A stretch of 64,000 nucleotides of DNA. Origin: a virus. Taxonomy: Duplodnaviria > Heunggongvirae > Uroviricota > Caudoviricetes. The notes below the pieces were generated by a model. It saw only the letters and a program-made list of their open reading frames with translations. It was not told where the DNA came from and did no database searches. A program made the position numbers and the translations under genes. The stretch covers positions 1-64,000 of IMG/VR virus record IMGVR_UViG_3300015608_002795; one strand, written 5' to 3'. This document shows positions 30,950 through 46,734 of this stretch, in pieces (within the stretch, counting starts at the first letter, position 1; the number at the start of each line of letters is the position of its first letter).

Positions 30950-31029
30950 GCTCCCGTAATCGAGTCTGCCTTCTAAGCAGTTAATCGTAACGGATATTGA
31001 AAATGAGGGTTCGAATCCCTCCGGGAGTT
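30950..31029 (+). tRNA. tRNA-like, D-arm apparently absent, UCU anticodon hairpin, long variable region
   Basis: acceptor GCTCCCG/CGGGAGT; anticodon stem TCTGC/GCAGT with loop CTTCTAA; T-arm GAGGG-TTCGAAT-CCCTC; only 8 nt between acceptor and anticodon stem. Confidence 0.35.
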
Positions 31030-31187
31030 CAAATATCGTCAAGATTCTATATCTATGAGAGTTTCTAGGACAATCATAAGATGAAATGGAAGAATTAAAA
31101 ACCACAGAATTTGATTTATAAATATTCTAGAAAGATTTATAAGTTGATGGTGGGTAGTAGGTTCGAATCCTACCTTGATGTCGAAAT

Positions 31188-31258
31188 GGGAATTTAGTTC
31201 AATGGAAGAACAAGGAGCTGTTAACTCTTAGACATCGGATCGTTACCGGTAATTCCCG
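31188..31258 (+). tRNA. tRNA-Asn (GUU)
   Basis: acceptor GGGAATT/AATTCCC perfect; D-stem GTTC/GAAC; anticodon stem AGGAG/CTCTT with loop CTGTTAA; T-loop ATCGTTA. Confidence 0.6.
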
Positions 31259-31289
31259 CAAATAACGAATACATAGTAGAAATACTATG

Positions 31290-31360
31290 TGGGATATACA
31301 TCAGTGGTAGATGGCCCTCGCGAAAGGGGGTAGGCAGTGGTTCGATTCCACTTATCCCAA
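31290..31360 (+). tRNA. tRNA, Phe(GAA)-like with GCGAAAG anticodon loop (C33)
   Basis: acceptor TGGGATA/TATCCCA perfect; D-stem CATC/GATG; T-arm AGTGG-TTCGATT-CCACT; preceded by a perfect 8-bp hairpin ACATAGTA-GAAA-TACTATGT. Confidence 0.45.
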
Positions 31361-31366
31361 CTAAAT

Positions 31367-31439
31367 TGTCAGTTAGCTCATTTGGTAGAGTACCTGTCTG
31401 ATACACAGGAGGTGCCGGGATCGTAACCCGGACTGACAA
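31367..31439 (+). tRNA. tRNA-Ile (GAU)
   Basis: acceptor TGTCAGT/ACTGACA perfect; anticodon stem CCTGT/ACAGG with loop CTGATAC; T-arm CCGGG-ATCGTAA-CCCGG. Confidence 0.65.
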
Positions 31440-31445
31440 CAAAAA

Positions 31446-31526
31446 CGGCGTGTAACCCTCAATCCTGATAAGATTGCTACGGGTAATTGGTAAGTGAAAA
31501 TGCTGGTTCGATTCCAGTCACGCCGA
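31446..31526 (+). tRNA. tRNA-like, D-arm apparently absent, GAU-type hairpin CAATC-CTGATAA-GATTG
   Basis: acceptor CGGCGTG/CACGCCG perfect; T-arm GCTGG-TTCGATT-CCAGT. Confidence 0.35.
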
Positions 31527-31532
31527 CAAATT

Positions 31533-31618
31533 GGGAGATTAGCTCAGCTGGTCAGAGCAAGATCCTGTTAAGATCGAGGCGTGAATAACGATTTCATAGG
31601 TTCGAATCCTATCTCCCG
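31533..31618 (+). tRNA. tRNA, class-II architecture, anticodon loop CTGTTAA (GUU), G73
   Basis: acceptor GGGAGAT/ATCTCCC perfect; D-arm GCTC-AGCTGGTCA-GAGC; 19-nt variable arm (CGT/ACG stem); T-arm ATAGG-TTCGAAT-CCTAT. Confidence 0.5.
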
Positions 31619-31661
31619 CTTATTGAGTGATTTTCGAAAATTATATTTTAATATATAATTT

Positions 31662-32315
31662 ATGGAATCAAAATATATTTGTGAAGAATGTGGTAATGAA
31701 TTTTTTCCATTAAAAAGGAATGTTCAATACTCAAAGCTGAAAGGATTAAATAGAATAAGATTTTGTTCTAAACAATGCTCCGGTAGAAATTCTAAAAAAG
31801 AAATATTACTAGAGTGTGCAAATTGTGGGAAACAAGTCTATAAAAAAAGAAAAGAGAGAAAAAAGAGTAAAAGTGGAAATATTTTTTGTGGTAAGAGCTG
31901 TTCAGCATCTTTTAATAACAGAAATAAGTCTACTGGAACAAGAAGAAGTAAGTTAGAGTTATGGATAGAGAAAGAATTGAAAAGTGAATATAAATTTGAA
32001 ATTATTTTTAATGGAAAAGAAATCATAAATAGTGAATTAGACATTTATATACCAAGCTTAAAATTAGCATTTGAGTTAAATGGTATATTTCACTATGAAC
32101 CTATTTATGGAGAAGAAAAACTTAAAAATATTAAAAATAATGATGATAGAAAATTTCAAGCCTGCTTAGAGAAAAATATAGAACTTTGCATAATAGATAC
32201 GTCAGGTTCTAAAAACTTTAAGTCAGAAAGAGACAAAAAATATTTTAACATCATTAGTAATATAATAAATGCACGGATGGTTCGAGTGGTTGAAGACACT
32301 AGTCTGCAAAACTAG
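31662..32315 (+). CDS. DUF559 / very-short-patch-repair-like endonuclease with N-terminal zinc ribbons (homing-endonuclease-like)
   Basis: 'CEECGNEF..CSKQCSG' and 'CANCGKQV..CGKSC' Zn ribbons; C-terminal 'IYIPSLKLAFELNG..EKNIELCIID' PD-(D/E)xK-like core; 3' end overlaps the next tRNA by about 45 nt. Confidence 0.5.
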   Translation: MESKYICEECGNEFFPLKRNVQYSKLKGLNRIRFCSKQCSGRNSKKEILLECANCGKQVYKKRKERKKSKSGNIFCGKSCSASFNNRNKSTGTRRSKLELWIEKELKSEYKFEIIFNGKEIINSELDIYIPSLKLAFELNGIFHYEPIYGEEKLKNIKNNDDRKFQACLEKNIELCIIDTSGSKNFKSERDKKYFNIISNIINARMVRVVEDTSLQN

Positions 32316-32357
32316 AAGCCGTAAGGTTCATCGTGAGTTCAAATCTCACTCCGTGCT
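32271..32357 (+). tRNA. tRNA with GCA (Cys) anticodon and 17-nt variable arm
   Basis: acceptor GCACGGA/TCCGTGC perfect; anticodon stem CTAGT/ACTAG with loop CTGCAAA; T-arm GTGAG-TTCAAAT-CTCAC. Confidence 0.55.
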
Positions 32358-32362
32358 CATAA

Positions 32363-32448
32363 TGTCTCGTAGCTCAGTGGTTTAAGAGCACCGCCCTTAC
32401 AAGGCGGAGGCGAATAGGATACCGTCAGTTCGATTCTGACCGAGACAA
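32363..32448 (+). tRNA. tRNA-Val (UAC) with 16-nt variable region
   Basis: acceptor TGTCTCG/CGAGACA perfect; anticodon stem CCGCC/GGCGG with loop CTTACAA; T-arm GTCAG-TTCGATT-CTGAC. Confidence 0.6.
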
Positions 32449-32456
32449 CAAAAAAT

Positions 32457-32541
32457 GCCTGGTTCGCATAGTGGACGATTGCACCTGCCTTGTAAGCAGG
32501 ATCTTAAAAAGGCGACGGGGGTTCGAATCCCTCACCAGGCT
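32457..32541 (+). tRNA. tRNA-Thr (UGU) with 16-nt variable region
   Basis: acceptor GCCTGGT/ACCAGGC perfect; anticodon stem CCTGC/GCAGG with loop CTTGTAA; T-arm GGGGG-TTCGAAT-CCCTC. Confidence 0.6.
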
Positions 32542-32585
32542 CAAAGTAGGAAGGCTCATATTTTTAATATATAAAAATAAAAACT

Positions 32586-33254
32586 ATGAGAATTTCAAAA
32601 GAAATATTAATTGAACTAGTTAATAGAGGACTATCAAATAAAAAAATATCAGAGGAATTAAATGTTTCTAGATCAACTATTGTTAGAGAAAAGTCTAAAT
32701 ATAATTTGAATTCAAAGTATTATGAAATTAAAAGTGAAATTAAAAAATGTGAGTTTTGTAATGAAGAATTTAAATCAATAAAGAGTGATAATAGAAAATT
32801 TTGTTCAAGGGAATGCTCTATTAATAGTCAGAAAAAGTCAAATGAATTAAAAATATGTGAGTTTTGTAATGAAGAATTTATAATAAGTGGGAGAAACATA
32901 TCAAAAAATAGAAAATTTTGCTCAACTGATTGTCATAAAAAGTATGTAGAAGATTCAAGATTTAAAAAATTAGAATATAACGGTGGAGTAAGTAACAAGA
33001 CAGCTAGGTTGTACCTAATAAAAAAATTTGGTGAAAAATGTATGAATTGTGGATGGGATAAGAAGAATACAGTTAGTGGAAAATGTCCGATAGAACTAGA
33101 ACATATAGACGGTAACTCAGAAAATAACAACTTAGATAATTTAAAATTACTTTGTCCAAATTGTCACTCATTAACACCAACATATAAATCTTTGAATAAG
33201 GGAAAAGGAAGACATAAAAGAAGAGAAAGGTATAAAGAAGGTAGAAGTTATTAA
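32586..33254 (+). CDS. HNH homing endonuclease (HTH + Cys-rich + HNH), paralogue of 22819-23463
   Basis: 'LEHIDGNSENNNLDNLKLLCPNCHSLTPTYKSLNKGKGR'. Confidence 0.8.
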   Translation: MRISKEILIELVNRGLSNKKISEELNVSRSTIVREKSKYNLNSKYYEIKSEIKKCEFCNEEFKSIKSDNRKFCSRECSINSQKKSNELKICEFCNEEFIISGRNISKNRKFCSTDCHKKYVEDSRFKKLEYNGGVSNKTARLYLIKKFGEKCMNCGWDKKNTVSGKCPIELEHIDGNSENNNLDNLKLLCPNCHSLTPTYKSLNKGKGRHKRRERYKEGRSY

Positions 33255-33255
33255 T

Positions 33256-33328
33256 TGGGGATTAGCTCAAATGGTAGAGCGTTTCTGTGACATGGAAAAG
33301 GTAGTGGGATCGTTACCCACATCCCCAA
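33256..33328 (+). tRNA. tRNA-Val (GAC)?
   Basis: acceptor TGGGGAT/ATCCCCA perfect; anticodon stem TTTCT/GGAAA with loop GTGACAT; T-arm GTGGG-ATCGTTA-CCCAC. Confidence 0.5.
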
Positions 33329-33333
33329 CAAAG

Positions 33334-33378
33334 TAGTGATGGTGATGATGTAACCCCATCATCCGGGTTCATCACTAT
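33334..33378 (+). ncRNA. tRNA-minihelix-like hairpin (7-bp terminal stem AGTGATG/CATCACT enclosing a 7-bp hairpin)
   Basis: AGTGATG-G-TGATGATG-TAACCC-CATCATC-CGGGTT-CATCACT; sits between two tRNA genes. Confidence 0.3.
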
Positions 33379-33451
33379 GTGGGAGTAGCTCAGTTGGTAA
33401 GAGCACCTGCATCGAGGCAGGCGGTCGGTGGTTCAAGTCCATCCTCCCATA
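33379..33451 (+). tRNA. tRNA with 6-nt anticodon loop ATCGAG (Arg UCG-like, one nt short)
   Basis: acceptor GTGGGAG/CTCCCAT; canonical D-arm GCTC-AGTTGGTAA-GAGC; anticodon stem CCTGC/GCAGG perfect but loop only 6 nt; T-arm GGTGG-TTCAAGT-CCATC. Confidence 0.45.
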
Positions 33452-33495
33452 CAAATCTTTAGTCTGATCAACTATTGACTGGATGGTTCGAAACA
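33452..33495 (+). ncRNA. tRNA top-half minihelix (acceptor-like stem TGATCAA/TTGATTA + T-arm GGATG-GTTCGAAA-CATCC)
   Basis: about 43-nt element with a T-loop consensus and a 7-bp terminal stem but no D or anticodon arm. Confidence 0.3.
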
Positions 33496-33496
33496 T

Positions 33497-33569
33497 CCGA
33501 TTGATTATGGTGTAAAGGGCACACCCGACGAGGGAGGTTTAAGGTTCGATTCCTTATTAATCAACAAAA
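33497..33569 (+). tRNA. tRNA-like, irregular anticodon region
   Basis: acceptor TGATTAT/TTAATCA (6 of 7); T-arm TAAGG-TTCGATT-CCTTA; D-stem GTG/CAC. Confidence 0.3.
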
Positions 33570-33570
33570 T

Positions 33571-33642
33571 GCCGTAGTCGTATAATTGGTATTACGCAAC
33601 GTTGGTATCGTTGTAACAGCGGATCGTAACCGCTCTATGGCT
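33571..33642 (+). tRNA. tRNA-Thr (GGU)
   Basis: acceptor GCCGTAG/CTATGGC; anticodon stem CAACG/CGTTG with loop TTGGTAT; T-arm AGCGG-ATCGTAA-CCGCT. Confidence 0.65.
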
Positions 33643-33760
33643 CTATAAGCATGGTAGTAGCCCTTATTTGAATGAAAATTTATCTTGACCGCAAGCAAAA
33701 TAGATAAAGAAGTAAGTAAAAAATAAAAAATCTACCCATCACTTGCGGGTGATGTTTTTT

Positions 33761-33850
33761 GCCCAGATGTTGGAATTTAGGGAGACATCACCGTCTTAGA
33801 AGCGGTGGCGAAATAATAGTAGCGTACGGGTTCGATCCCCGTTCTGGGCA
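33761..33850 (+). tRNA. tRNA-Leu (UAG), class II
   Basis: acceptor GCCCAGA/TCTGGGC perfect; anticodon stem ACCGT/GCGGT with loop CTTAGAA; 19-nt variable arm; T-arm ACGGG-TTCGATC-CCCGT; preceded by the terminator hairpin at 33737-33760. Confidence 0.65.
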
Positions 33851-33858
33851 CGAATAGT

Positions 33859-33992
33859 TTGTATTATGGCGAAGCTGGGATTGATTTCGGGTAAACTCCA
33901 AAATCTTCTACTCAAGAACGAAAACCGCCATCCTGATGTACGAGGTAGATAGTATAAGGGATCATAGGTTCGAGTCCTATTAATACAAACAT
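33859..33992 (+). tRNA. tRNA-like with about 60-nt internal insertion (acceptor TGTATTA .. T-arm ATAGG-TTCGAGT-CCTAT .. TAATACA)
   Basis: perfect 7-bp terminal complementarity and canonical T-arm, but 134 nt end to end. Confidence 0.25.
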
Positions 33993-33994
33993 TA

Positions 33995-34070
33995 TGGCAT
34001 GGCTTAGAGGAAAAGAGCGGTCTCTCATAAGGACTGTCAAGTGGGTTCGAACCCCACGCATGCTACTAAT
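33995..34070 (+). tRNA. tRNA (CAU anticodon hairpin GGTCT-CTCATAA-GGACT); acceptor pairing imperfect
   Basis: T-arm GTGGG-TTCGAAC-CCCAC; D-stem GCT/AGC. Confidence 0.35.
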
Positions 34071-34130
34071 TCGGATTGGAAATTACCACTTCGGACTTTT
34101 AATATATATATAATAAAAATTAAAAAAGAA

Positions 34131-34733
34131 ATGTGTAATTATGGATGGAGTAACGGATTAGACTCCGCAAATGACAATAGAATTAGAAGTAAATATAAAT
34201 ATATAGCACTTTGTGAAAATTCAAATATTCACAGAGGAGTTTTAAGAAATAAAATAATTAAAGAGGGATTAATATTATATAAATGTTCAGAATGTGGAAT
34301 TACCAATGAATGGAATGGGAAAAAAATAATTTTAGAACTGGATCATATAAGCGGTGATAGTACTGATAATAGAATTGAAAATTTAAGATTTTTGTGTCCA
34401 AATTGTCATTCTCAAACACCAACATTTAAAGGTAGAAATAAACCGAAGTCAGAAAAAGAAATAAAAATAAGAAAAGAAAAGAAAAAAAAGGAGAGGAGAA
34501 AAAAAATAAAAAATAAAAAATGCAATAATTGTAGTAAAATGTGTAGCTTTAATGCGGATGTTTGTAGGGACTGTTACAAAATATTACAAAGAAAATATGA
34601 TAGACCAGATGATCAAATATTATTAAGACAGGTTAAAGAATTTGGATATACAAAAACATCAAAAATATATGGAGTTTCTGATAAAACTATTAAAAAATGG
34701 TTTGAGGATTTATCGGATACACCGAAAGATTAA
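34131..34733 (+). CDS. HNH homing endonuclease (track ORF 34041 trimmed to the ATG downstream of the tRNA)
   Basis: 'CSECGITNEWNGKKIILELDHISGDSTDNRIENLRFLCPNCHSQTPTF'; C-terminal HTH-like 'YGVSDKTIKKWF'. Confidence 0.75.
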   Translation: MCNYGWSNGLDSANDNRIRSKYKYIALCENSNIHRGVLRNKIIKEGLILYKCSECGITNEWNGKKIILELDHISGDSTDNRIENLRFLCPNCHSQTPTFKGRNKPKSEKEIKIRKEKKKKERRKKIKNKKCNNCSKMCSFNADVCRDCYKILQRKYDRPDDQILLRQVKEFGYTKTSKIYGVSDKTIKKWFEDLSDTPKD

Positions 34734-34736
34734 AAA

Positions 34737-34819
34737 GGCCCAATGGCGTAACGGTAGCCGCGGCAGGCTCAAACCCTGCTGACCTAAAAGTCGTGTAGGT
34801 TCGACTCCTACTTGGGTCA
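34737..34819 (+). tRNA. tRNA-Leu (CAA), class II
   Basis: acceptor GGCCCAA/TTGGGTC; anticodon stem GCAGG/CCTGC with loop CTCAAAC; long variable arm; T-arm GTAGG-TTCGACT-CCTAC. Confidence 0.7.
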
Positions 34820-35658: not shown

Positions 35659-35683
35659 TTGTATAATTAATATATATATTTTA

Positions 35684-37588: not shown

Positions 37589-38758
37589 ATGAAAATTGAT
37601 ATAAACAAAATAAAAATAACACCAGAAAAACTTGGATTTAATTTCTGCCAATTTGGTGAATTAACAGAAGAAGTAAAATCTTGGGTTGATTTTTGGAAAT
37701 TTAAAACAGAAAAATCAGGACCATTTACTAACATAATAGTTGGTGATATAGATTTTGAATTAATATTCAATGAATCAGTCAGTTACGACTATGTAGATGG
37801 ATTTAGTCCTAACCTAAATAAACATCTTCATGTTGGACATTTATCAAATCTTGTTATTGCAAATGCAATGCAGAAATTGGGAATAGGAAAAGAGTTCATT
37901 GCAATATTAGGTGATACCTTAGATGGTGAGGTAAATAAGTCAGATGCACTTTCATCATACCAAAAATATTGTCAAGAATTCAATTATAAAGTAGATAAAA
38001 TTTTTTACGCTTCTGACATGAAATTAAAGGATGATATTTTAAAAGAGGGAGAAGGTGACTACTTAGGATCAAAAGTATTTGATTTAGGTGATGAAAAAAT
38101 AGTTGGAATAAAGAGTTCTGGATTAACATCTTACTTTTATCAAGATGTTGCCTTAGCTCAACACTTAAATTCATCGACTCTTTATCTGACTGGTTTTGAA
38201 CAGGATAATCACTTCAAATCATTAAAGAAGCTATTTCCATCGACAAACCATATAGGTTTAGGATTAGTTCTTCTAAATGGTAAGAAAATGTCAAGTAGTG
38301 AAGGTAATATCATTCTATTAAAAGATTTTATAAACCAACTATTAGAAATGTTTAATGATATAAAATTGGTTTATAATATTTTAGCTGGTCAAATTTTAAA
38401 ATCAGCACCAGGTAGTAGTAAATCAATTGATATGAAACTAATTAGTAATCCTAAATTATCACTTGGGTTATATTTAAGTTACACTATGGCACATATTAAA
38501 AGTTGTGGAGTAGAAACAAAAAAAATTAAAAATTATGTATCAGAGGAATTACAATTTGCAGAACTAAAATCAAAAGTAAATTTAAGTCCTAATTTATTAT
38601 TTGAATCTCTAGTAAAACACTGTAAGTCAATTAATAAGTTATATGAGACACATTATATAAAAAACAACAAAGAAAATATAGAACTTTTCTCTACACTAAT
38701 CTCTGATTTAGAGTTAGGAATGAGTAAATTAGGTATGTTTTCCATTGATAAAGTATAA
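37589..38758 (+). CDS. class-I aminoacyl-tRNA-synthetase-like catalytic core (ArgRS-like: 'LHVGHLSN' HIGH and 'KMSSS'), no anticodon-binding domain
   Basis: 'FSPNLNKHLHVGHLSNLVIANAMQKLG' resembles the ArgRS/CysRS HIGH region; 'KMSSSEGN' is KMSKS-like; 389 aa versus more than 550 aa for a full ArgRS. Confidence 0.55.
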   Translation: MKIDINKIKITPEKLGFNFCQFGELTEEVKSWVDFWKFKTEKSGPFTNIIVGDIDFELIFNESVSYDYVDGFSPNLNKHLHVGHLSNLVIANAMQKLGIGKEFIAILGDTLDGEVNKSDALSSYQKYCQEFNYKVDKIFYASDMKLKDDILKEGEGDYLGSKVFDLGDEKIVGIKSSGLTSYFYQDVALAQHLNSSTLYLTGFEQDNHFKSLKKLFPSTNHIGLGLVLLNGKKMSSSEGNIILLKDFINQLLEMFNDIKLVYNILAGQILKSAPGSSKSIDMKLISNPKLSLGLYLSYTMAHIKSCGVETKKIKNYVSEELQFAELKSKVNLSPNLLFESLVKHCKSINKLYETHYIKNNKENIELFSTLISDLELGMSKLGMFSIDKV

Positions 38759-40485: not shown

Positions 40486-40851
40486 TTAAGTATCTCCGTA
40501 GTGATCGATACAGGAATATATCAAAACCTCGGATTCACTAACTTTATATTCTAATCTTACTTTCTTATTTATTCTCTTCGAACATCTACCATCACCTTTT
40601 AAATGTTCTGACCTTCCTAGCCCAGCACTTTGTGGTCTCCACAATTCGGGATTTCTAGCCATATCATTTATCAACGAAACTACTTTTTTATAATCATTTT
40701 TATTTAATTGAAGCATCTCATTAAATTCCTCAAATGCTTTTTTAGTAAAGGAAATTTTCCTCTCGACCTTCTTACTAGGATCAGAGTTATTAGATATATG
40801 AGCATGCATTCTATAGCTCTCATTCACAAAATTTTCGAATCTTGTAATCAT
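40486..40851 (-). CDS. hypothetical protein (121 aa)
   Basis: intact ORF. Confidence 0.45.
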   Translation of the reverse strand: MITRFENFVNESYRMHAHISNNSDPSKKVERKISFTKKAFEEFNEMLQLNKNDYKKVVSLINDMARNPELWRPQSAGLGRSEHLKGDGRCSKRINKKVRLEYKVSESEVLIYSCIDHYGDT

Positions 40852-40861: not shown

Positions 40862-43135
40862 TTATAAATTTTCCTTATTAATTTCACCTCTTATTATACT
40901 AGTATCAGCCTGATTTAATGGATAATTAGGTAGTGTTAGCCTCATATTTGCATTATCTGCGAATATTAAGTACCTATAATCCTCTCCAATTATTGCTTGA
41001 TTTAATAATTTACTATGTTCTGACTCAGGAACAATATCATTAAACAATCTAATATTCGTAATCTTCATATCAGACCCTAATATTGTAGCATTTGTATTTT
41101 CCAATTCAAAATTAACTATTGTTAAATCATTCTCTTGTGAATATACTTTCTTTAGTATGGTAGAATCTATTGAAGAAGCATCTGATTCAACATCAGTATT
41201 TCTTTTATAAATCCATTGGTTTATTTTTCGTTGTCTTTGATCAACATTCACAAGATATGAGTACCACGTTCCTTCCTGTAAAGCGTTAGCATTTCCAGTA
41301 ACTCCTATAGCAAAATTATAACTATCTGTATTTAATGTAAATGATATCACATCAGATTCTAGATTTATTTTAAATCCTAAACTATTTGTATCATCATAAT
41401 ATTTTATGAAATTATAACTATCATTAACGGTATAGTTATTTATATTAAACCATAACATGAAGCTAAAATTATCAGACACTTTGAAATAATCTCTGAAGTT
41501 TCTATATGTAACACCAGTAGATTGATAAGTAATACTATTTAAATCATAATTGGACTTACTAATAATGTTAGTAGAGTTTTCAATTAACTCTTTATCAATA
41601 TCAACAAGAATTTCAGTTCTTAGAACATCTCTTGTAAGTGGTCTAAATTGTTCCTTGTTAGCGACATCTTTCTTATCTAGAGAATTTTCAAGTCCAAATA
41701 GTTCATCAATAGTAGAATTCTTAGTAAGTTCTTTAACTTTATCAGTGATTGTCTGATTAACACCAATAATATTGGATTTTTGTACATATTTTTTAAGCAT
41801 AACCTTATAGTATAAAGCAGAGTTGTTAAAATTTCTAAATTGTTGAGCATGCTCTACTTGAAACATTCTGTTTAAATTACAAAACCACAAAAAATCTTCT
41901 TTACTTGGTCTTTTTTCAACCCCAAATGCCTTTTTAAACATTTCTTTTGGTATGTGAACTTCAAAACTATCAAATAAAGAAAGGTCAAATTGATTCATTG
42001 CTATTTGATTATCAGGAAAATTATTTCCATCAACCGCTATTTTCATCATCTCACTACACACATAATTGTATAATTGATATTCGTGGAAGGTAAAATCTAT
42101 TCCTTTCTTATCAGGATCGGTTAGAAAATAAACTACATCGTGTCCAAACATTTGGGTCGAATCATTACTTAATTGATTAAGTAAATTTACTGCCTGTGTT
42201 TGTTGATATGGTTGAAATAATTTCGATATATCATCAGGGGTTAATGGTTTTAATGGACTAGCATCACAACTAGATCCATCTAAAAGACCGCTTGTAGAGT
42301 TAGAATCACTAGCTGTTCCACCAACAATGCCTAACATTAGACAACTACAATTTTCTCTGACACCATATAAATTTGTTTTTTGTGCATCAAGTGTAACGTT
42401 TTGGAAGTCACCAATTAAATTAATATCAAATATTTTAACAATTGATGATCCACTATATTCTATTAAATATTCAATTTGAAAAAATCTTACTGGATTTATT
42501 CTAACAGTTGATATATTTTCTTTAGTTAATGGTTCCCATTGTGATACAGTTCTACCATAATCCTGTGAGAATCTATACTTTATATTAGCATTGGTAATAT
42601 CACCACTTGATAGAATTTCTATATCATCAATTTTAAAGACCTTATAAATATAAGGTGGCTTAATAACAATAGATGTATTTGTAGTATTTAAGGTGATAAT
42701 ACTCTCACCATCGGTTATACTTCTAGCAACTGCCCCATTTAATGTATAATCGAGAAGTTTAATAGTTCCAATGTCAGATGTCCCTGCTCTTTCCCATTTT
42801 ATATCGATATACATCGGATCTTTTGGATCAACTGTTTGAAAATTAAGTATGGTACTATTCAATTCAGACCATCCAGTCCATGTTGTATTATTCCTTGATA
42901 TTCTATAATATGTATTTAGGTATCTAGAATTGCTTGTTCCAGAAGAATTATAATCAAAGGTTTTGAATTTCTCAATATCTGATAAGTTTAATATTGATTG
43001 TATATAGGTATCACCAATACCCACAAACTGCGGTTCTTCTCCTGTTGCAAATGTTTCAGTTATTGAAATAACTCCAGTAAGTGTGTTTTTATCTACAGAA
43101 TACATAATATGATATATATTAAAAATGTATTTCAC
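40862..43135 (-). CDS. large hypothetical protein (757 aa), probable virion structural or receptor-binding protein
   Basis: long Asn/Ser/Thr/Tyr-rich beta-rich sequence typical of tail fibre/lectin-like proteins; promoter-like TATATTTG just upstream on the minus side. Confidence 0.55.
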   Translation of the reverse strand: MKYIFNIYHIMYSVDKNTLTGVISITETFATGEEPQFVGIGDTYIQSILNLSDIEKFKTFDYNSSGTSNSRYLNTYYRISRNNTTWTGWSELNSTILNFQTVDPKDPMYIDIKWERAGTSDIGTIKLLDYTLNGAVARSITDGESIITLNTTNTSIVIKPPYIYKVFKIDDIEILSSGDITNANIKYRFSQDYGRTVSQWEPLTKENISTVRINPVRFFQIEYLIEYSGSSIVKIFDINLIGDFQNVTLDAQKTNLYGVRENCSCLMLGIVGGTASDSNSTSGLLDGSSCDASPLKPLTPDDISKLFQPYQQTQAVNLLNQLSNDSTQMFGHDVVYFLTDPDKKGIDFTFHEYQLYNYVCSEMMKIAVDGNNFPDNQIAMNQFDLSLFDSFEVHIPKEMFKKAFGVEKRPSKEDFLWFCNLNRMFQVEHAQQFRNFNNSALYYKVMLKKYVQKSNIIGVNQTITDKVKELTKNSTIDELFGLENSLDKKDVANKEQFRPLTRDVLRTEILVDIDKELIENSTNIISKSNYDLNSITYQSTGVTYRNFRDYFKVSDNFSFMLWFNINNYTVNDSYNFIKYYDDTNSLGFKINLESDVISFTLNTDSYNFAIGVTGNANALQEGTWYSYLVNVDQRQRKINQWIYKRNTDVESDASSIDSTILKKVYSQENDLTIVNFELENTNATILGSDMKITNIRLFNDIVPESEHSKLLNQAIIGEDYRYLIFADNANMRLTLPNYPLNQADTSIIRGEINKENL

Positions 43136-43158
43136 AAAGAATCTGTATATTTGTAATT

Positions 43159-43386
43159 ATGAAGATTTATCCAAAAGAAGATATTAAAAATGGATTTGAT
43201 CAAATCATATGGTATAAAAATAAATCATATGAATGCACACAAATAGAAGAGAATAGAGACCTTTGGGTAGTTACATGTGAACTCATTGCTAATGAATACC
43301 CACTACTTAAAATGAGTGAAATACTTTTACGATTCTATACTATTGAAGATCAAAGAGATATGAGGATAGATGATGTCCTAAAATAA
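43159..43386 (+). CDS. hypothetical protein (75 aa)
   Basis: intact ORF. Confidence 0.4.
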   Translation: MKIYPKEDIKNGFDQIIWYKNKSYECTQIEENRDLWVVTCELIANEYPLLKMSEILLRFYTIEDQRDMRIDDVLK

Positions 43387-43387
43387 T

Positions 43388-43418
43388 TTTGTTTATTCCG
43401 AAAATGTTCGTATATTTG
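43388..43418 (+). promoter_or_regulatory. Bacteroidetes-type promoter (TTTGTTTATTCC..CGTATATTTGTAA)
   Basis: 18 nt upstream of the peptidase gene start. Confidence 0.5.
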
Positions 43419-43435
43419 TAAAAAATTATTGTATA

Positions 43436-44641
43436 ATGAACATAAAAGAAACATTTTTAAGATTGACAAGTAAGACTTATCCACATGGAAGTGAGTCTGA
43501 ACTGTACGATCTATTAATCGACGGATTGGAATTTGACGAGTTTGGTAACAGATACATACAAGTTGGCGAAAGCACCTGTATGTTTACTTCTCACCTGGAT
43601 ACAGCCACATCTGCTAAGACAGATGTTAATCATGTTTTTGAAGGTAATATTATTAAGACAGATGGTACATCAATTTTAGGCGCAGATGATAAGGCAGGTG
43701 TTACTATCATGTTTTATATGATTGAGAATAAAGTGCCTGGTCTATATTATTTCTTCTTAGGTGAAGAGGTTGGTTGTATCGGATCTAAGAAACTATCTAC
43801 TAAATTAAATACTACAAAAGAATATCCATTTGATAAGATCAATAAGGTTATTTCATTTGATAGGCGTGGATATGACTCTGTTATCACCTATCAAGCAAGT
43901 AGCAGATGCTGTTCTGATGAATTCGCTCAAGCTTTAGCAGATGACCTAAATAAGTGTGGTGTAGCTTTTAATTATAAGCCAGATCCAACAGGTATCTATA
44001 CGGACTCTGCTCAATTTACACGAATTTATCCAGAATGTACCAACATTTCAGTTGGATATAAGTCTGAGCACACTTTCTCTGAAAATCAAGATATTGATCA
44101 CTTAGAAGAATTAGGCAAAGCTTGTTTAAACGTTGAATGGGAAAAACTGCCTGTAACAAGAGATCCAAGCAAGTATGAATACAGAAGTTATAGTTATGGA
44201 TACGGTGATTGGGAGTCTGAATGGGAAGATTATTATGGATATGGATCTTATGGAAATAGATCTAGAATGATTTCCAACGCAGCATCCGCATCATCATATA
44301 CACCGCCTGAAAAAGATGAAACTTTACACTTCTATGATGAAGAATACCAATTTGTATCTTCTCTTAAGAAGAATAAGCTTAGTGATAGATTAATTTCTGT
44401 AGATTTTGCACCTGAAAGAATTGATGATGAAAAATCATCCATCATTGAAATACTTGAATCACTTGAAGTAGATTATAAGGCGGTCAAATGGGATGGATTC
44501 AAACTTGTGGTCAAACACAATGAGCCAGCAGATCATACTACAGAATGCTTGAGAGCTGATCTAACTGAATTCTTACCAAATCTTGATTTCTGGAAAAAAG
44601 AAATTGAAGATTATAAAGGAGTTAGTGATAAGATTTATTAA
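43436..44641 (+). CDS. M20/M28/M42-family metallopeptidase-like protein
   Basis: 'HLDTATSAKTDV' and 'GADDKAGVTIM' metal-ligand motifs. Confidence 0.55.
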   Translation: MNIKETFLRLTSKTYPHGSESELYDLLIDGLEFDEFGNRYIQVGESTCMFTSHLDTATSAKTDVNHVFEGNIIKTDGTSILGADDKAGVTIMFYMIENKVPGLYYFFLGEEVGCIGSKKLSTKLNTTKEYPFDKINKVISFDRRGYDSVITYQASSRCCSDEFAQALADDLNKCGVAFNYKPDPTGIYTDSAQFTRIYPECTNISVGYKSEHTFSENQDIDHLEELGKACLNVEWEKLPVTRDPSKYEYRSYSYGYGDWESEWEDYYGYGSYGNRSRMISNAASASSYTPPEKDETLHFYDEEYQFVSSLKKNKLSDRLISVDFAPERIDDEKSSIIEILESLEVDYKAVKWDGFKLVVKHNEPADHTTECLRADLTEFLPNLDFWKKEIEDYKGVSDKIY

Positions 44642-44651
44642 AAATATTAAA

Positions 44652-45116
44652 ATGAAAACATTAGCAATATACGCTGGATCATTTAATCCATTTCACATTG
44701 GTCATTTGAATATTTTGGAAAAGGCAGAAAAAATTTTTGGAAAAGGAAATGTACTAGTTGCCATGGGTGTAAATCCAGCTAAATTGTCGTTAGATGAAGT
44801 AAGAAAAGGAGCCTTAGAAAAAATGTCTCTTTTAGAGAATAAGATTGGAAGAAAGGTTGAAGCCTATTTTTCCTTTCTACATGAGTTTATTGAACAAAAA
44901 GAGAAAGAAGGATACGATGTTGTATTAGTTAGAGGTCTAAGAAATGGTGATGATCTCGCTTATGAAAATAATCAATTGAGTTTCATACATGACTTTAAAC
45001 CTGAGGTTAAATCAGTGTTTATTATGTGTGATAAGCAATATGAACACGTTTCATCTTCTTCTATTCGTCAATTGGAATCTTTTATTCCAGGTAGTGGGTC
45101 CAAATATTTAGTATGA
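44652..45116 (+). CDS. nucleotidyltransferase of the NMNAT/PPAT (cytidylyltransferase-like) family
   Basis: 'IYAGSFNPFHIGHLNIL' is the (H/T)xGH adenylyltransferase signature (GxFxPxHxGH). Confidence 0.65.
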   Translation: MKTLAIYAGSFNPFHIGHLNILEKAEKIFGKGNVLVAMGVNPAKLSLDEVRKGALEKMSLLENKIGRKVEAYFSFLHEFIEQKEKEGYDVVLVRGLRNGDDLAYENNQLSFIHDFKPEVKSVFIMCDKQYEHVSSSSIRQLESFIPGSGSKYLV

Positions 45117-45487
45117 TATTTATTCGTTTTATTTTATTATTATCATCTATCTATATAATATATAGGTCAACACATATGATATTTGATATCATAATTAGTC
45201 ACTCTTCCTATAATAAAGCATTCAAAAGGTATAATGATATTAATAATAAGATTGCAAACTTTTTATACCAATCTGATAATATCAATAAATATAGAAGTCA
45301 AACATCTGAGTATTTAAAAATAACTTATGATAATTTAAAAGAGTTCACTGAAATTGTGTCGATGAAGGATTACACGATGTATTACATTAAATCTTATAAA
45401 GAACTATATGATTTATTTAAAGATATTATACCTGAACTAGTTCAGGAGGAAAGAGAAAAAAAATTAAATAAAATTTTGTTGGTTTAA
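45113..45487 (+). CDS. hypothetical membrane protein (124 aa)
   Basis: hydrophobic N-terminus 'MIFIRFILLLSSIYIIY'. Confidence 0.4.
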   Translation: MIFIRFILLLSSIYIIYRSTHMIFDIIISHSSYNKAFKRYNDINNKIANFLYQSDNINKYRSQTSEYLKITYDNLKEFTEIVSMKDYTMYYIKSYKELYDLFKDIIPELVQEEREKKLNKILLV

Positions 45488-45505
45488 AAAGATTTCGTAT
45501 CTTTG
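45475..45505 (+). promoter_or_regulatory. Bacteroidetes-type promoter (TTTGTTGG..TTCGTATCTTTGTG)
   Basis: followed by a leader, the terminator hairpin at 45676-45713 and the 3' tRNA super-cluster. Confidence 0.5.
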
Positions 45506-45716
45506 TGTAACAAAAGAAAAAATAAACTAAAAGGGACAATTAAAATATAATATATACTATTATGAAATTATTTATTAACATACAAGTTCAGCCGACTCAA
45601 CAACCCGATCAGGATCCTGATAAGGGAAAGGCTATCTGTATGTTATAAACGATTTAAAATTAATTCAAAATAACTACCCATTTAGCCTAAACTAAATGGG
45701 TTTTTTTGTTTTATAT

Positions 45717-45790
45717 CGGGTAGTGTGGACAATTGGGAGTCTCCTCCGTCTGGACCGGAGTGAATGCAGGTTCGAGCCCTGTCTACCCGA
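45717..45790 (+). tRNA. tRNA-Pro (UGG)-like (C33 in loop TCTGGAC)
   Basis: acceptor CGGGTAG/CTACCCG perfect; anticodon stem CTCCG/CGGAG; T-arm GCAGG-TTCGAGC-CCTGT. Confidence 0.5.
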
Positions 45791-45849
45791 CTGATTGAGA
45801 CTGTTATTAATTCATAGACCGCATAAAAGGGAATCATAGAATTAAAAAA

Positions 45850-45924
45850 CGAGAATGTGTTGTAAACCGGTTGCATACTTCCCCTGGAAGGAAGAGGAGT
45901 GGTTCGAATCCAACATTTTCGACA
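45850..45924 (+). tRNA. tRNA-like (UGG hairpin CTTCC-CCTGGAA-GGAAG), weak T-stem
   Basis: acceptor CGAGAAT/ATTTTCG (1 GU); T-loop TTCGAAT present. Confidence 0.3.
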
Positions 45925-45966
45925 GGTCTAGTTAGATTTCTAGCGTGTAATAATAAAAAATCAAAC

Positions 45967-46041
45967 GGTGCCATCCATCATTGGTCAGGGCTACCTCACT
46001 GTCTATGAGTGTAGGTGCGGGTTCGAATCCCGTTGGTACCG
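45967..46041 (+). tRNA. tRNA-Asp (GUC)? (loop CTGTCTA; an alternative register would give CUA)
   Basis: acceptor GGTGCCA/TGGTACC; T-arm GCGGG-TTCGAAT-CCCGT; anticodon stem only 4 bp in either register. Confidence 0.45.
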
Positions 46042-46052
46042 CAAAAAGGAAA

Positions 46053-46123
46053 GGTCTATTAGTTTAATGGTAAAATGTCAGCTTGTCACGCTGATGTCAC
46101 GAGTTCGATTCTCGTATAGACCG
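46053..46123 (+). tRNA. tRNA-Asp (GUC)
   Basis: acceptor GGTCTAT/ATAGACC perfect; anticodon stem TCAGC/GCTGA with loop TTGTCAC; T-arm ACGAG-TTCGATT-CTCGT. Confidence 0.65.
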
Positions 46124-46156
46124 CAACAGGGCTGCGTCTGTATAAAGCAGGCATTG

Positions 46157-46229
46157 GGTCGTTTAGGGGAGAGGTCGTCCCTGCCGGCATGTGGGCCGGA
46201 GAGCGGTGGTTCGAATCCATCAGCGACCG
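46157..46229 (+). tRNA. tRNA-His (GUG)-like with 6-nt anticodon loop ATGTGG and extra 5' G(-1)
   Basis: acceptor GGTCGTT/AGCGACC preceded by G; D-arm GGGG-AGAGGTCGT-CCCT; anticodon stem CCGGC/GCCGG perfect; T-arm GGTGG-TTCGAAT-CCATC. Confidence 0.5.
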
Positions 46230-46284
46230 CGATTCCCTGATGAAGGGACTAGTTAGACTTCTAAGGTTATCAAAAAGTCAGGAT

Positions 46285-46355
46285 TGTTCAATGGTGTAAC
46301 GGTAGCACAACAGGTTTTGGTCCTGTTAGTCGTGGTTCGAATCCACGTTGAATAA
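46285..46355 (+). tRNA. tRNA-Gln (UUG)
   Basis: acceptor TGTTCAA/TTGAATA; D-stem GTG/CAC; anticodon stem ACAGG/CCTGT with loop TTTTGGT; T-arm CGTGG-TTCGAAT-CCACG. Confidence 0.65.
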
Positions 46356-46361
46356 CAAGTT

Positions 46362-46445
46362 GGTCCCGGCGCATAATGGCTGGTGCAGCGGATTGTCACT
46401 CCGTGGATTTAAAAACCGTAGTGGGTTCGATTCCCATCGGGACCG
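46362..46445 (+). tRNA. tRNA with GUC (Asp) anticodon and 16-nt variable region
   Basis: acceptor GGTCCCG/CGGGACC perfect; anticodon stem GCGGA/TCCGT with loop TTGTCAC; T-arm GTGGG-TTCGATT-CCCAT. Confidence 0.55.
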
Positions 46446-46452
46446 CAAATAA

Positions 46453-46529
46453 CGAGATGTTGGGGAGTCCGGTTACCCCGCCTGCTTTGGGAGCAGGAGA
46501 ACTCGCAGGTTCGAATCCTGCCATCTCGA
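46453..46529 (+). tRNA. tRNA-Pro (UGG)
   Basis: acceptor CGAGATG/CATCTCG perfect; D-stem GGGG/CCCC; anticodon stem CCTGC/GCAGG with loop TTTGGGA; T-arm GCAGG-TTCGAAT-CCTGC. Confidence 0.7.
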
Positions 46530-46543
46530 CAAAAATTAAAAAA

Positions 46544-46600
46544 TGAGAATCGTAATATCATATCAGCAACAGCAACAACAAATTGATCGAACAGATTGAT
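46544..46600 (+). CDS. 18-codon mini-ORF with a run of six Gln codons (MRIVISYQQQQQQIDRTD)
   Basis: ATG with upstream A-rich leader; CAG/CAA x6; followed by the terminator at 46621-46659; embedded in a tRNA-Gln-rich array. Confidence 0.3.
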
Positions 46601-46620
46601 AAGGAGTTGTATTGCTAAAC

Positions 46621-46659
46621 TAACCCCACTCAATTTGTTTTGAGTGGGGTTTTTTATTT
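46621..46659 (+). terminator. intrinsic terminator (AACCCCACTCAA..TTGAGTGGGGTT + T-run)
   Basis: 10-bp stem and TTTTTTATTT. Confidence 0.6.
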
Positions 46660-46663
46660 AAAT

Positions 46664-46734
46664 TGTCTCGTGGTGAAGTGGTATCACGGCGGTCTTTGGT
46701 CCCGCAGGTCCTGGTTCAATTCCAGGCGAGATAA
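46664..46734 (+). tRNA. tRNA-Gln (UUG), T31:C39 mismatch
   Basis: acceptor TGTCTCG/CGAGATA; D-stem GTGA/TCAC; loop CTTTGGT; T-arm CCTGG-TTCAATT-CCAGG. Confidence 0.55.

Follow-up and report, generated by a model that had tools for sequence, protein, structure and literature searches.

The non-canonical tRNA genes of this phage fall into two classes: (A) genes without a D arm, which belong to a conserved and apparently so far undescribed family of rewired Arg/Ile tRNAs, and (B) genes with 6-nt anticodon loops, together with genes carrying mismatches or lacking U33. The explanation which best accounts for both, and which we consider probable, is that class A comprises functional tRNAs with a rewired core, while class B comprises real, lineage-specific paralogues which likely do not decode. 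A single phenomenon behind all the oddities found no support, since the 6-nt-loop genes are lineage-specific singletons and the D-arm-less genes form a conserved, covarying family. The window, i.e. the whole stretch of 64,000 nucleotides that was analysed, is a 30% GC part of a huge-phage genome with more than 55 tRNA-like genes; all odd tRNA-like elements described below lie on its plus strand.

The genes listed by an earlier sequence-only reading are indeed unusual by the rules of bacterial and phage tRNAs, and their sequences are real. Every flagged element is 100% identical across 4-8 independent assemblies (JGI; ENA MEGAHIT and SPAdes; Logan samples), which span samples, centres and assemblers and include strains differing by 1-4% elsewhere. 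No support was found in them for sequencing or assembly errors, such as indels in loops, and this explanation, whose probability is negligible, is already refuted.

Three class A genes lie in the window. The first (30950-31029, anticodon UCU for Arg, AGA; 71.4 bits with the family covariance model R1) has its acceptor strands at 30950-56 and 31022-28, U8 and A9 at 30957-58, and an anticodon arm at 30965-81 with the loop CTTCTAA, followed by a D-loop-like TAACGGA... segment at 30988-31004 and a T arm at 31005-21. An additional helix, here termed P, pairs CGA (30961-63) with TCG (30985-87). In the second gene (31446-31526, anticodon GAU for Ile; RF00005 30.1 bits, R1 60.7 bits) the P helix joins CCC (31456-58) to GGG (31481-83), with the anticodon loop CTGATAA at 31465-71 and the D-loop-like segment TAATTGGT at 31484-91. 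The missing D hairpin reported for these two genes was confirmed: 8 and 7 nt, respectively, occupy the gap between acceptor and anticodon stem, the anticodon loop has the normal 7 nt, and 24-25 nt precede the T arm. The third gene (21693-21773, anticodon UAU for Ile, AUA; RF00005 41.3 bits, R1 60.5 bits), with a P helix between CGA (21703-05) and TCG (21728-30), lay outside the range of the sequence-only reading and was missed by it. ARAGORN misses all three, with no call for 30950 at default settings, and at the RF00005 gathering score, which the other two barely pass, 30950 is not reported.

The family comprises 26 members of 77-89 nt on about 16 phage or phage-like contigs, cultured Pseudomonas phages among them, with anticodons for Arg (UCU, UCG, CCU, ACG) or Ile/Met (UAU, GAU, CAU). 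Fourteen members from 5 phages were gathered by hand. Run across 1.5 Mb, R1 separated family members (49-77 bits) from canonical tRNAs (at most 36 bits) and retrieved 12 members absent from its building set. Six MAG contigs, L140 and uncultured phages of 635-642 kb carry these members, as do the Pseudomonas phages ventosus and vB_PF_Y1-MI, whose copies lie without annotation between tRNA-Trp and tRNA-Arg genes that are annotated. Dense tRNA islands surround all 12.

Four helices covary in this family. The hand-made alignment A5 is 93.2% paired, compared with 61.6% after shuffling, and shows compensatory changes in 19 of 20 pairs, with none of 500 shuffles as good (shuffle counts here and below overstate significance, as the members are akin to each other); alignment A6, with 20 members fitted to the model, is 94.2% paired overall and 94.8% in the P helix, and both alignments lean towards the proposed structure. 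The P helix is a new 3-bp helix between the 5' connector and the segment 3' of the anticodon arm, after which the D-loop-like UAAYNGG follows. In register, 39 of its 42 cells are paired, against at most 23 when the strands are slid, and 39 is reached by 0 of 5000 shuffles. The helix measures just 2-3 bp, its third pair being mismatched in several members. Non-standard pairs also occur in the acceptor stem, with G1.U72 at the top in 8 of 20 members and a non-standard pair 6:67 in 7 of 20 (U.U in 5 of the 14 tabulated hand-collected members).

Tertiary and identity signals are likewise retained. U8, A9 and A14 are invariant; positions 15 and 48 are A15/U48 in 17 cases and G15/C48 in two, C48 occurring exactly in the two G15 members, and 21693 is a G15/C48 variant of this Levitt-type pair. 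All 12 Arg members that could be scored have A at N20, and six of the seven Ile/Met members have U; the discriminator of the Ile/Met members is always A (A73 in 7/7), a pattern matching the identity sets of bacterial ArgRS and IleRS (PMC9976931). The covariation of 15 with 48, along with A20 in the Arg and U20 and A73 in the Ile members, indicates that the D-arm-less genes are real tRNAs with swapped core segments.

From family conservation, covariation and identity nucleotides, all directly observed, we infer the three-dimensional fold, charging and decoding of class A (30950, 31446, 21693), proposed to be functional and to belong to a conserved phage family of tRNAs with two core segments in exchanged order. 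After U8-A9, the chain would pass through the 3' D-stem strand and position 26 directly into the anticodon arm; past this arm, a linker of 3-5 nt would lead to the 5' D-stem strand and then to the D-loop (U-A14-R15-Y16-N-G18-G19-N20...), the 3' end of which would join the T stem via a nucleotide acting as position 48. The D stem would be closed by the anticodon arm in place of the D loop. With this arrangement, an L-shaped tRNA could still be built with its elbow contacts and all four of its helices. The D-arm-less tRNAs are most likely charged and would decode AGA and AUA, both very frequent in this 30% GC phage: in the window ORFs, AGA accounts for 66% of Arg codons and AUA for 40% of Ile codons. 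The UCU and UAU anticodons are carried in the window by D-arm-less genes only.

All the odd genes, D-arm-less ones included, could alternatively be decaying pseudogenes left by a fast turnover of duplicates in phage tRNA arrays, and the window is indeed rich in redundant paralogues (Gln x6; Glu, Lys and Tyr x3 each). However, the D-arm-less family is kept among phages with proteins merely 40-55% identical and G+C contents of 40-62%, cultured Pseudomonas phages among them, with compensatory changes in its four helices and its identity nucleotides preserved. For this class, decay appears to be already largely refuted by covariation. The sequence-only reading had suggested checking relatives for conservation of the unusual loops; the conservation of class A in related genomes speaks for function over decay, while the check is uninformative for the 6-nt-loop genes, which have no orthologue.

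These 6-nt-loop genes are two cloverleaf tRNAs at 33379-33451 (loop ATCGAG; otherwise a perfect cloverleaf) and 46157-46229 (loop ATGTGG), each loop closed by C31-G39 on a perfect 5-bp stem, as the sequence-only reading had described and as ARAGORN and Infernal both confirm. ARAGORN reports tRNA-?(Arg|Ser)(cg) at 33379-33452 (stem CCTGC/GCAGG) and tRNA-?(Thr|His)(gt) at 46157-46230 (stem CCGGC/GCCGG), Infernal scores the genes at 56.4 and 43.4 bits against RF00005 with the loop aligned 1 base short in both, and the stem and loop are retained in the RNAfold minimum-energy structures. The description of 46157 as His-like with G-1 holds only in part: position 1 is indeed preceded by a G, yet G73 is the discriminator, whereas the tRNA-His of relatives has C73. 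Its acceptor stem is similar to those of the neighbouring tRNA-Asp genes. The gene could still matter, because no canonical tRNA-His was found within the window.

The claim that the two loops open into 8-nt, quadruplet-decoding loops did not find support, as the C-G closing pair tops perfect G+C-rich stems and is kept shut in thermodynamic and covariance models, both ARAGORN and Infernal modelling loops of 6 nt. The opened loops (CAUCGAGG, CAUGUGGG) also lack the 2 + 4 + 2 layout of known +1 suppressors, with U33 followed by 4 and then 2 nt. More broadly, the genes might be frameshift-promoting decoders for programmed recoding, reading quadruplets (8 nt, opened) or doublets (6 nt). Loop length alone would fit; the form C31-AU-NNN-R-G39 is common to three independent 6-nt-loop cases in the phage clade. 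Yet among 336 tRNAs of this clade no 8-nt anticodon loop occurs, and interrupted ORFs needing a frameshift were not noticed in the window, in what was not a systematic search, which leaves such decoding highly improbable. Homologues of 33379 and 46157 were absent from about 130 related loci and from IMG/VR, and the syntenic positions in relatives L012 and L011 are empty of such genes. Six of the 336 tRNAs have 6-nt loops, the other cases being likewise confined to single lineages, and the one in L042 belongs to a family whose remaining members carry 7-nt loops. The simplest origin of the 6-nt loops at 33379 and 46157 would be a 7-nt loop minus one base on its 3' side.

Other flagged genes are similarly aberrant. 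At 31290-31360 (ARAGORN), a slippery anticodon stem with five G allows several registers (CGCGAAA, GCGAAAG or the 6-nt GCGAAA), none of which provides U33, and so the aberrant loop described earlier is borne out. The reported 31:39 mismatches are also present, as U31.C39 in 46664-46734, one of six tRNA-Gln(UUG) paralogues (ARAGORN, RF00005), and as C31.C39 in 5587-5676, a degenerate Ser(UGA)-like paralogue directly upstream of the canonical Ser(UGA) gene, which has a non-canonical T loop (GTCGGGT). The sequence-only reading had missed further odd genes: a tRNA resembling Pro(UGG), with C33 and only 3 bp in its T stem (45851-45921), which recurs at 100% identity in a phage where the adjacent protein has only 66% identity; an Asp(GUC)-like tRNA whose D stem is disrupted (45967-46041, 28.4 bits); a tRNA(CAU) whose D stem has 3 bp (CTT/AAG), whose D loop has 6 nt and whose anticodon stem has 7 bp (33996-34065), kept in L012 and L068 and showing compensatory changes when the anticodon stems are aligned; a 65-nt element missing most of the anticodon arm (23545-23609), with a 5' half ~90% identical to that of 33379; and a Tyr(GUA)-like element that also lacks a D hairpin (19412-19505). 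In the last, for which no homologues were found, the connector GCTAC could pair with a GTAGC located in the 35-nt variable region, a design which seems similar in idea to the D-arm-less family.

Class B genes, taken as real, lineage-specific paralogues, are most likely young pseudogenes which no longer decode, or possibly nuclease decoys; the presence of a canonical Arg(UCG) tRNA gene at 5773 fits this reading. Decay is consistent with the clearly truncated copy at 23545, the broken T loop at 5587 and the lack of orthologues of the 6-nt-loop genes. Against it, all stems of class B genes are intact and their Infernal scores match the level of canonical neighbours, and 45851 and 33996 are conserved in diverged phages. 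Strain-level substitutions also avoid the odd genes: in the 45.7-47.1 kb island, with spacers ~2% diverged, four of them show 0 changes against roughly 6 expected at the spacer rate, which argues for constraint, with no statistical power for any single gene. As an account of all the odd genes, decay is improbable.

Phage T4 counters the anticodon nuclease PrrC with a repair kit of the RNA ligase and kinase type. A comparable kit adjoins the tRNA islands here, with an RNA ligase gene (PF09414, 35047-35658, plus strand) and an AAA_33 kinase gene (51304-51795), which suggests tRNA repair. The non-canonical genes, with their 6-nt or C33/G33 loops and unpaired acceptor ends, might in this setting be non-decoding mimics that shield the phage from host nucleases which attack tRNAs: they could act as decoys or inhibitors that cannot be cleaved, or serve as nuclease-resistant substitutes. 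Phage tRNAs are known to evade or counteract anticodon nucleases, retron effectors and PARIS (PMC10264068, PMC11555353, PMC11464382), and canonical, long-variable-arm and D-arm-less versions of the same anticodon co-occur. The 'Ser_a' family, moreover, has a conserved G33 and, in its acceptor end, conserved A.A mismatches, features with which its tRNAs are likely uncharged. Nevertheless, the case for mimicry is purely circumstantial, a loop of 6 nt would probably imitate a nuclease substrate poorly, and the singletons are not conserved past strain level; we regard it as rather unlikely, and retain non-decoding paralogues as the preferred reading of class B.

Among known systems, +1 frameshift suppressor tRNAs of the sufD / sufA6 type have 8-nt anticodon loops, with an extra anticodon base and U33 kept in place. 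They share with 33379 and 46157 a loop which is not of 7 bases, but in the two genes a base is missing instead of added, and C-G closes the loop. Evasion of anticodon nucleases has been proposed for phage tRNAs with substitutions in the anticodon loop (van den Berg et al. 2023, PMC10264068); those tRNAs are similarly phage-encoded, redundant and off the host consensus in their loops, but they carry base substitutions in 7-nt loops, whereas the loops found here have 6 nt or lack U33 and are not expected to permit normal decoding.

Class A shares with canonical tRNAs (RF00005) the 7-bp acceptor, the 5-bp T stem with a TTCRANY loop, the 5-bp anticodon stem, the 7-nt loop with U33 and R37, and the location in same-strand tRNA islands, differing in the reordered core segments, which leave no D hairpin. 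Rearranged segment order is also known from the permuted tRNA genes of Cyanidioschyzon merolae, in which the two halves are encoded in reverse order, 3' before 5', and processing by way of a circular intermediate yields a normal cloverleaf again. In the phage family, by contrast, the acceptor ends stay terminal and the exchange is limited to the internal segments 10-21 and 22-43; the mature RNA itself would thus carry the new topology. Allo-tRNAs and 8/4 or 9/3 tRNAs, recovered by metagenome mining and in part from phages (Mukai et al. 2017, PMC5389517), likewise combine non-canonical architectures with long variable arms on unexpected anticodons, but they alter the acceptor/T-stem split and keep the D arm, whereas the phage family has a 7/5 split and no D hairpin. 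A likeness in outline also extends to metazoan mitochondrial D-armless tRNAs, e.g. human mt-tRNA-Ser(GCU/AGY), in which a short connector replaces the D hairpin, the anticodon-side helix is extended, and the adaptor role proposed for the phage family is fulfilled (PMC9427863, PMC4013460). Those tRNAs are cut to ~60 nt, have lost the D-loop/T-loop elbow contacts and depend on co-evolved synthetases and EF-Tu (PMC9427863, PMC4013460). The phage family, in contrast, is of full length or longer (77-89 nt), has equivalents of a 2-3 bp D-stem and of the D-loop (A14, R15, G18 G19, N20) moved to a place after the anticodon arm, retains the bacterial identity nucleotides as well as a canonical T loop, and occurs with Arg and Ile/Met anticodons only, in phages and not in organelles.

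Three tRNA-like genes of the window, at 30950-31029, 31446-31526 and 21693-21773, have no D hairpin: where stem 10-13/22-25 and its closing D loop would lie, only 7-8 nt are present. The absence had been noticed in the first two by a sequence-only reading and was borne out; the third came from a search for an acceptor stem and T arm combined with a normal anticodon hairpin only 7-8 nt past the acceptor stem, which also returned 11 more copies in four related phages. R1, a covariance model built from 14 members, scored these at 51-77 bits, against at most 36 bits for canonical tRNAs over 1.3 Mb. Outside the training set it matched ventosus and vB_PF_Y1-MI, both Pseudomonas phages, a pair of uncultured phages (635 and 642 kb), the related locus L140 and six MAG contigs of a species-representative genome collection, each of them a dense tRNA island; BLAST matches were also found in phages UAVern and Bitten. 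In ventosus and vB_PF_Y1-MI the element lies in an unannotated gap with an annotated tRNA-Trp on one side and tRNA-Arg(ACG) on the other, and D-arm-less elements are unannotated in the GenBank records examined. The ventosus element spans about 11272-11348 of record MG018930.1, on the minus strand. At another related locus (L152, 2933-3016) ARAGORN calls a D-arm-less Arg(UCU) member tRNA-Ile(AAT), so that wrong names in existing annotations may hide family members. No account of phage D-armless or long-variable-arm tRNAs was found in a literature survey of incomplete coverage, which leaves novelty unproven.

Members of the family are 77-89 nt long and share one plan. A 7-bp acceptor stem is followed by invariant U8 A9, 1-2 nt, a 3-nt segment (mostly CGA, CCC, CAG or CTG), 1 nt, and an anticodon arm with a 5-bp stem and a canonical loop (C/U32, U33, R37). 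Past the arm come 3-5 nt, a second 3-nt segment (TCG, GGG, CTG, CAG), the complement of the first, the motif UAAYNGG, 6-19 more nucleotides usually ending in AAAU, and a canonical T arm. The two complementary segments form a new 3-bp helix, here called P, in which nucleotides 3-5 past A9 pair with the three before UAAY and thereby enclose the anticodon arm.

The structure was assessed on an N-padded structural alignment of 14 members, which replaced a plain MAFFT alignment that had misaligned the anticodon arms. In this structure-registered alignment 93.2% of cells were paired, compared with 61.6% in shuffles, and compensatory changes occurred at 19 of the 20 pairs. For P itself, slide and shuffle controls gave 39/42 cells paired in register versus no more than 23/42 when the strands were slid. 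With 20 members, pairing reached 94.2% for the whole structure and 94.8% for P, whose pair types comprise CG, GC, AU and UA. A local hairpin within the long "variable" region was considered as well; since only about half the members form it, and not in a consistent register, it was dropped in favour of pairing between the 5' connector and the variable region. At a low threshold, ARAGORN's mitochondrial mode gave 1663 calls, which were discarded as noise. Decay of ordinary tRNA genes into pseudogenes is an unlikely account of the family, because it is conserved and covarying.

Downstream of the P 3' strand, the sequence resembles a D loop, reading U, A14, R15, Y16, (N), G18, G19, N20, with A14 invariant. 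A 15/48-type pair is present as A15/U48 in 17 members, G15/C48 in two and A15/A48 in one; C at the position-48 equivalent, the last nucleotide before the T stem, is confined to the two G15 members, window gene 21693 and a gene at 5911 of the related locus L145. In polarity and position, the P 5' strand would correspond to nucleotides 23-25, running through 26 into 27-31, and the P 3' strand to nucleotides 10-12, leading into the D loop. From this match we infer a normal tRNA in which segments 10-21 and 22-43 would have been exchanged, possibly through a partial tandem duplication of which the outer copies were later lost. In the corresponding three-dimensional reading all helices and elbow contacts could form, with the D stem closed by the anticodon arm.

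The nucleotide after GG (N20) varies with the anticodon: every one of the 12 scorable Arg-anticodon members has A there, and 6 of the 7 Ile/Met members have U; A73 is present in all seven of the latter. Bacterial ArgRS identity elements are A20, C35 and U/G36, and those of IleRS include A73, U20, A35 and U36 (PMC9976931); A20 in the Arg members, and U20 with A73 in the Ile members, match these sets. In the ORFs of the window, 66% of the codons for Arg are AGA and 40% of those for Ile are AUA, and UCU and UAU anticodons are carried there by D-arm-less genes only. Likewise, the D-arm-less element of ventosus is the sole UCU tRNA in the island examined. The N20 and A73 identity nucleotides and the demand for AGA and AUA would thus lend indirect support to aminoacylation and ribosomal use of these tRNAs.

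Comparison with the canonical cloverleaf separates the D-arm-less genes from other odd genes of the window. The 7-bp acceptor stem, 5-bp T stem and TTCRANY T loop are present in 30950, 31446, 21693, 33379 and 46157; 5587 has a non-conforming T loop and 45851 a T stem of 3 bp only. All 26 D-arm-less members have a 7-nt anticodon loop with U33 and a purine at 37, which is not found in 33379, 46157, 31290 (no U33 in any register) or 45851 (C33). Against the Rfam RF00005 gathering threshold of 29 bits, scores were 56.4 for 33379, 43.4 for 46157, 41.3 for 21693, 32.7 for 45851 and 30.1 for 31446; 45967 fell below it at 28.4 bits and 30950 was not reported. The 31:39 mismatches described earlier are present (U.C in 46664, C.C in 5587). 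Sequencing error is excluded as the source of these oddities, since 4-8 assemblies that differ in sample, centre and assembler carry the flagged elements with 100% identity, some of these assemblies being from strains 1-4% different from the window elsewhere.

The genes at 33379-33451 and 46157-46229 do possess a D hairpin, and their peculiarity is a 6-nt anticodon loop (ATCGAG and ATGTGG). ARAGORN reports them as tRNA-?(Arg|Ser)(cg) at 33379-33452 and tRNA-?(Thr|His)(gt) at 46157-46230, with perfect 5-bp stems closed by C-G; Infernal aligns both loops one base short and RNAfold retains them. No register worked by hand that would give a 7-nt loop pairs, and the loops (A-U-NNN-R), when numbered from U33, have no position 38. 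The description of 46157 as His-like with G-1 holds in part: G is present at -1, but the discriminator is G73, whereas in the His tRNAs of related phages G-1 is accompanied by C73, and the loop is a normal TTGTGGT. It had also been proposed that the closing pair might open into an 8-nt loop of the quadruplet-decoding type. A +1 frameshift suppressor has an 8-nt loop with U33 and a 4-nt anticodon; the loops here are of 6 nt and C-G closed, no support for opening of C31-G39 was found, and the opened loops, CAUCGAGG and CAUGUGGG, carry U at the third position and lack the known +1-suppressor layout. Furthermore, among 336 tRNAs predicted by ARAGORN in non-redundant loci, 6-nt loops occurred six times and 8-nt loops not once, which speaks against quadruplet decoding; there was no indication of recoding by these genes.

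Conservation of the loop length in orthologues had been suggested as a check, and its outcome differs between the two classes: the D-arm-less class is conserved and covarying, and no homologue of 33379 or 46157 was recognisable in about 130 related loci. IMG/VR scans with exact and gapped DNA patterns of the two genes gave no match, so that the question could be answered by synteny only. Synteny is kept in two relatives, yet no gene stands at either position: in L012 the 3' end of the Val gene leads directly to the next odd element at the 33379 position, and in L011 a long-arm Asp gene takes the place of 46157. Each 6-nt loop is limited to one lineage. That of the related locus L042 belongs to a member of the family "Ser_a", whose other members have a 7-nt TGTGAAA loop, and that of L140 adjoins a canonical Phe(GAA). 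The closest paralogues in the window show weak generic similarity, except that the 5' half of 33379 resembles the truncated element 23545.

Against simple decay of 33379 and 46157 stand their intact stems; neither gene showed changes between strains, at low power. In the 45.7-47.1 kb island, strain differences lie nearly all in spacers, with about 8 events in 394 nt, against 1 in 677 nt of canonical tRNAs and 0 in 290 nt of the four odd genes, a pattern which suggests constraint on the four as a group but lacks statistical power gene by gene. Most economically, each would be a redundant paralogue that lost one base and now yields a non-decoding RNA. The two genes are real, and most likely ordinary products of array turnover; they are the less important of the two classes, and show that such loops arise repeatedly in these arrays.

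Further non-canonical genes accompany them. The Pro-like 45851-45921, which has C33 and the 3-bp T stem, recurs in L011 at 100% identity; the neighbouring protein there is only 66% identical. A CAU gene with a short D arm and a 7-bp anticodon stem (33996-34065) is kept in both L012 and L068, and its anticodon stems, when aligned, show compensatory changes; the tRNA-like element at 23545-23609 has no anticodon arm. Large insertions mark the elements at 22240-22322, 33465-33564, 33860-33988 and 31037-31181: a hairpin sits within the D loop of one, a Gly(UCC), and the others, 100-145 nt long, combine a good acceptor stem and a good T arm with a poorly defined interior, 33860-33988 being read by ARAGORN as Trp(CCA) with a 35-nt intron. 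Long-variable-arm tRNAs of 82-91 nt occur at 2653-2742, 2751-2838, 19153-19238, 31532-31618, 32271-32357, 32363-32448, 32457-32541, 46362-45 and 46818-99, and in the related loci L041, L068, L086, L047 and L079. They carry class I anticodons (Lys, Glu, Asn, Cys, Val, Thr, Asp and Gln; in relatives also Ile, His, Met, Trp and Pro), usually adjoin a normal-length copy, and have variable-arm stems which covary between phages (for Ile, GAGG/CCTC and GTAC/GTAC). They account for 36 of the 336 tRNAs, to which 10 Leu/Ser/Tyr-anticodon genes of at most 76 nt are added.

The conserved "Ser_a" family (L041 18357-18444, L042 15225-15310, L068 16709-16796, L086 13255-13346) lies between tRNA-Trp and a canonical Ser(UGA). 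Its body is of class II, its anticodon stem covaries, and its TGTGAAA loop carries G33; A.A mismatches are kept at acceptor pairs 1:72 and 2:71, and its members are unlikely to be chargeable. The degenerate window element 5587-5676 occupies the same place, just upstream of canonical Ser(UGA). CUA-anticodon tRNAs (amber suppressors, "Pyl" for ARAGORN) are found singly or in pairs in L040, L042, L061, L062 (7276 and 8099), L068, L078, L079, L083, L084, L086 and L087, often adjoining tRNA-Cys; they hint at TAG recoding in part of the clade, and at default stringency the window yielded none. The odd genes near the two 6-nt-loop genes, together with the long-variable-arm class I tRNAs and the short Leu and Tyr forms of the clade, make structural diversification of tRNAs a property of the whole clade.

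ARAGORN predicts 41 tRNA genes in the window, all on the plus strand; RF00005 added further ones, and a scan in which a G+C-rich T arm had to precede a matching acceptor stem brought the total to more than 55 tRNA-like elements. In DNA of 30% G+C, they form islands at 2.6-2.9, 5.5-6.6, 18.5-19.7, 21.7-23.6, 25.6, 30.7-34.8, 38.8 and 45.7-47.1 kb. A terminator-like hairpin and then TTTTTTTGTTTTATAT precede the start of each island, and the discriminator is followed by CAA, not CCA, in most tRNAs. A spacer module composed of a short hairpin, CTAGTTAGA(C/T)TTCTA and TCAAAAAGTCA, in that order, is kept between tRNAs (window 45922-45945 and 46230-46284; L011 8500-8556). Island megablast against INPHARED gave no match. 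The window's first ORF occurs on short contigs only and its last ORF is not on record, so no useful extension resulted. Two flanking proteins served to retrieve relatives, IMG/VR and metagenome contigs that reach 483-493 kb; these, with the content of the window, identify it as a segment of a huge phage.

Between the islands are homing endonucleases of the HNH, GIY-YIG and LAGLIDADG types, a ClpB-like ATPase, an RNA ligase, an AAA_33 kinase and a TonB-dependent-receptor homologue. The last (27343-29274; Plug domain and beta-barrel) is an unusual phage gene, conserved broadly among these phages and present in about 330 metagenome loci, with 38-57% identity among those examined. A YoeB-like toxin gene (40486-40851) adjoins a 757-aa ORF with no match to any known family. 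Fragmentary or divergent synthetase-type genes at 1764-2531, 23695-24486, 24470-24955 and 37589-38758 comprise a tRNA-synt_1b-like ORF, fragments of the AlaRS N terminus and of a class II core, and a 389-aa protein in which class I signatures (ArgRS and Trp/TyrRS) are faint. Around the islands, the RNA ligase (PF09414, 35047-35658), the AAA_33 polynucleotide-kinase-like protein (51304-51795), a cytidylyltransferase-like protein (44583-45116) and an HD_4 protein (52323-52940) could together constitute a kit for tRNA repair or processing. Phage tRNAs and defences targeting tRNAs have been described (PMC10264068, PMC11555353, PMC11464382), and with the ligase and kinase genes they make a putative anti-nuclease rationale for the odd tRNAs plausible.

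We advance tentatively, with rather less than even confidence, the view that the D-arm-less genes represent a new natural architecture, with no earlier case outside organelles of a missing D hairpin, in which segments 10-21 and 22-43 are swapped and which would fold into an L, be charged by bacterial ArgRS and IleRS, and decode AGA, AUA and CGN on host ribosomes. It may have been selected as an escape from host nucleases recognising the D or anticodon arm, and the 6-nt-loop tRNAs would then be decoys, at the non-decoding end of that arms race. A conserved family with a changed strand topology and bacterial identity elements would mean that bacterial translation can cope with a rewired tRNA core. 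Some phage tRNAs would moreover escape current annotation tools systematically, as in the records of cultured phages, and the missed ones may be a phage's sole AGA or AUA decoders. The architecture would also offer a natural scaffold for orthogonal or nuclease-resistant tRNAs, and its presence in the cultured Pseudomonas phages ventosus, UAVern, Bitten and vB_PF_Y1-MI makes it directly testable.

Textbooks and recent engineering papers (e.g. PMC11551756) take the cloverleaf as universal for bacterial-type translation; the armless tRNAs known to them are all from animal mitochondria, where the factors have co-evolved. The D-arm-less family fits neither a Cyanidioschyzon-type permuted tRNA gene, nor an allo-tRNA, nor a frameshift suppressor. 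Allo-tRNAs and other 8/4 and 9/3 tRNAs split a 12-bp acceptor branch 8/4 or 9/3, whereas all elements studied here are 7/5. Mitochondrial D-armless tRNAs have a truncated body of about 55-65 nt, without contacts between D loop and T loop, and serve organellar translation. The phage genes, at 77-89 nt, with a canonical T loop and a G18 G19 equivalent in a phage context, are not of this type; they resemble it only in the missing hairpin and differ in their own identity nucleotides, their length and their D- and T-loop elements.
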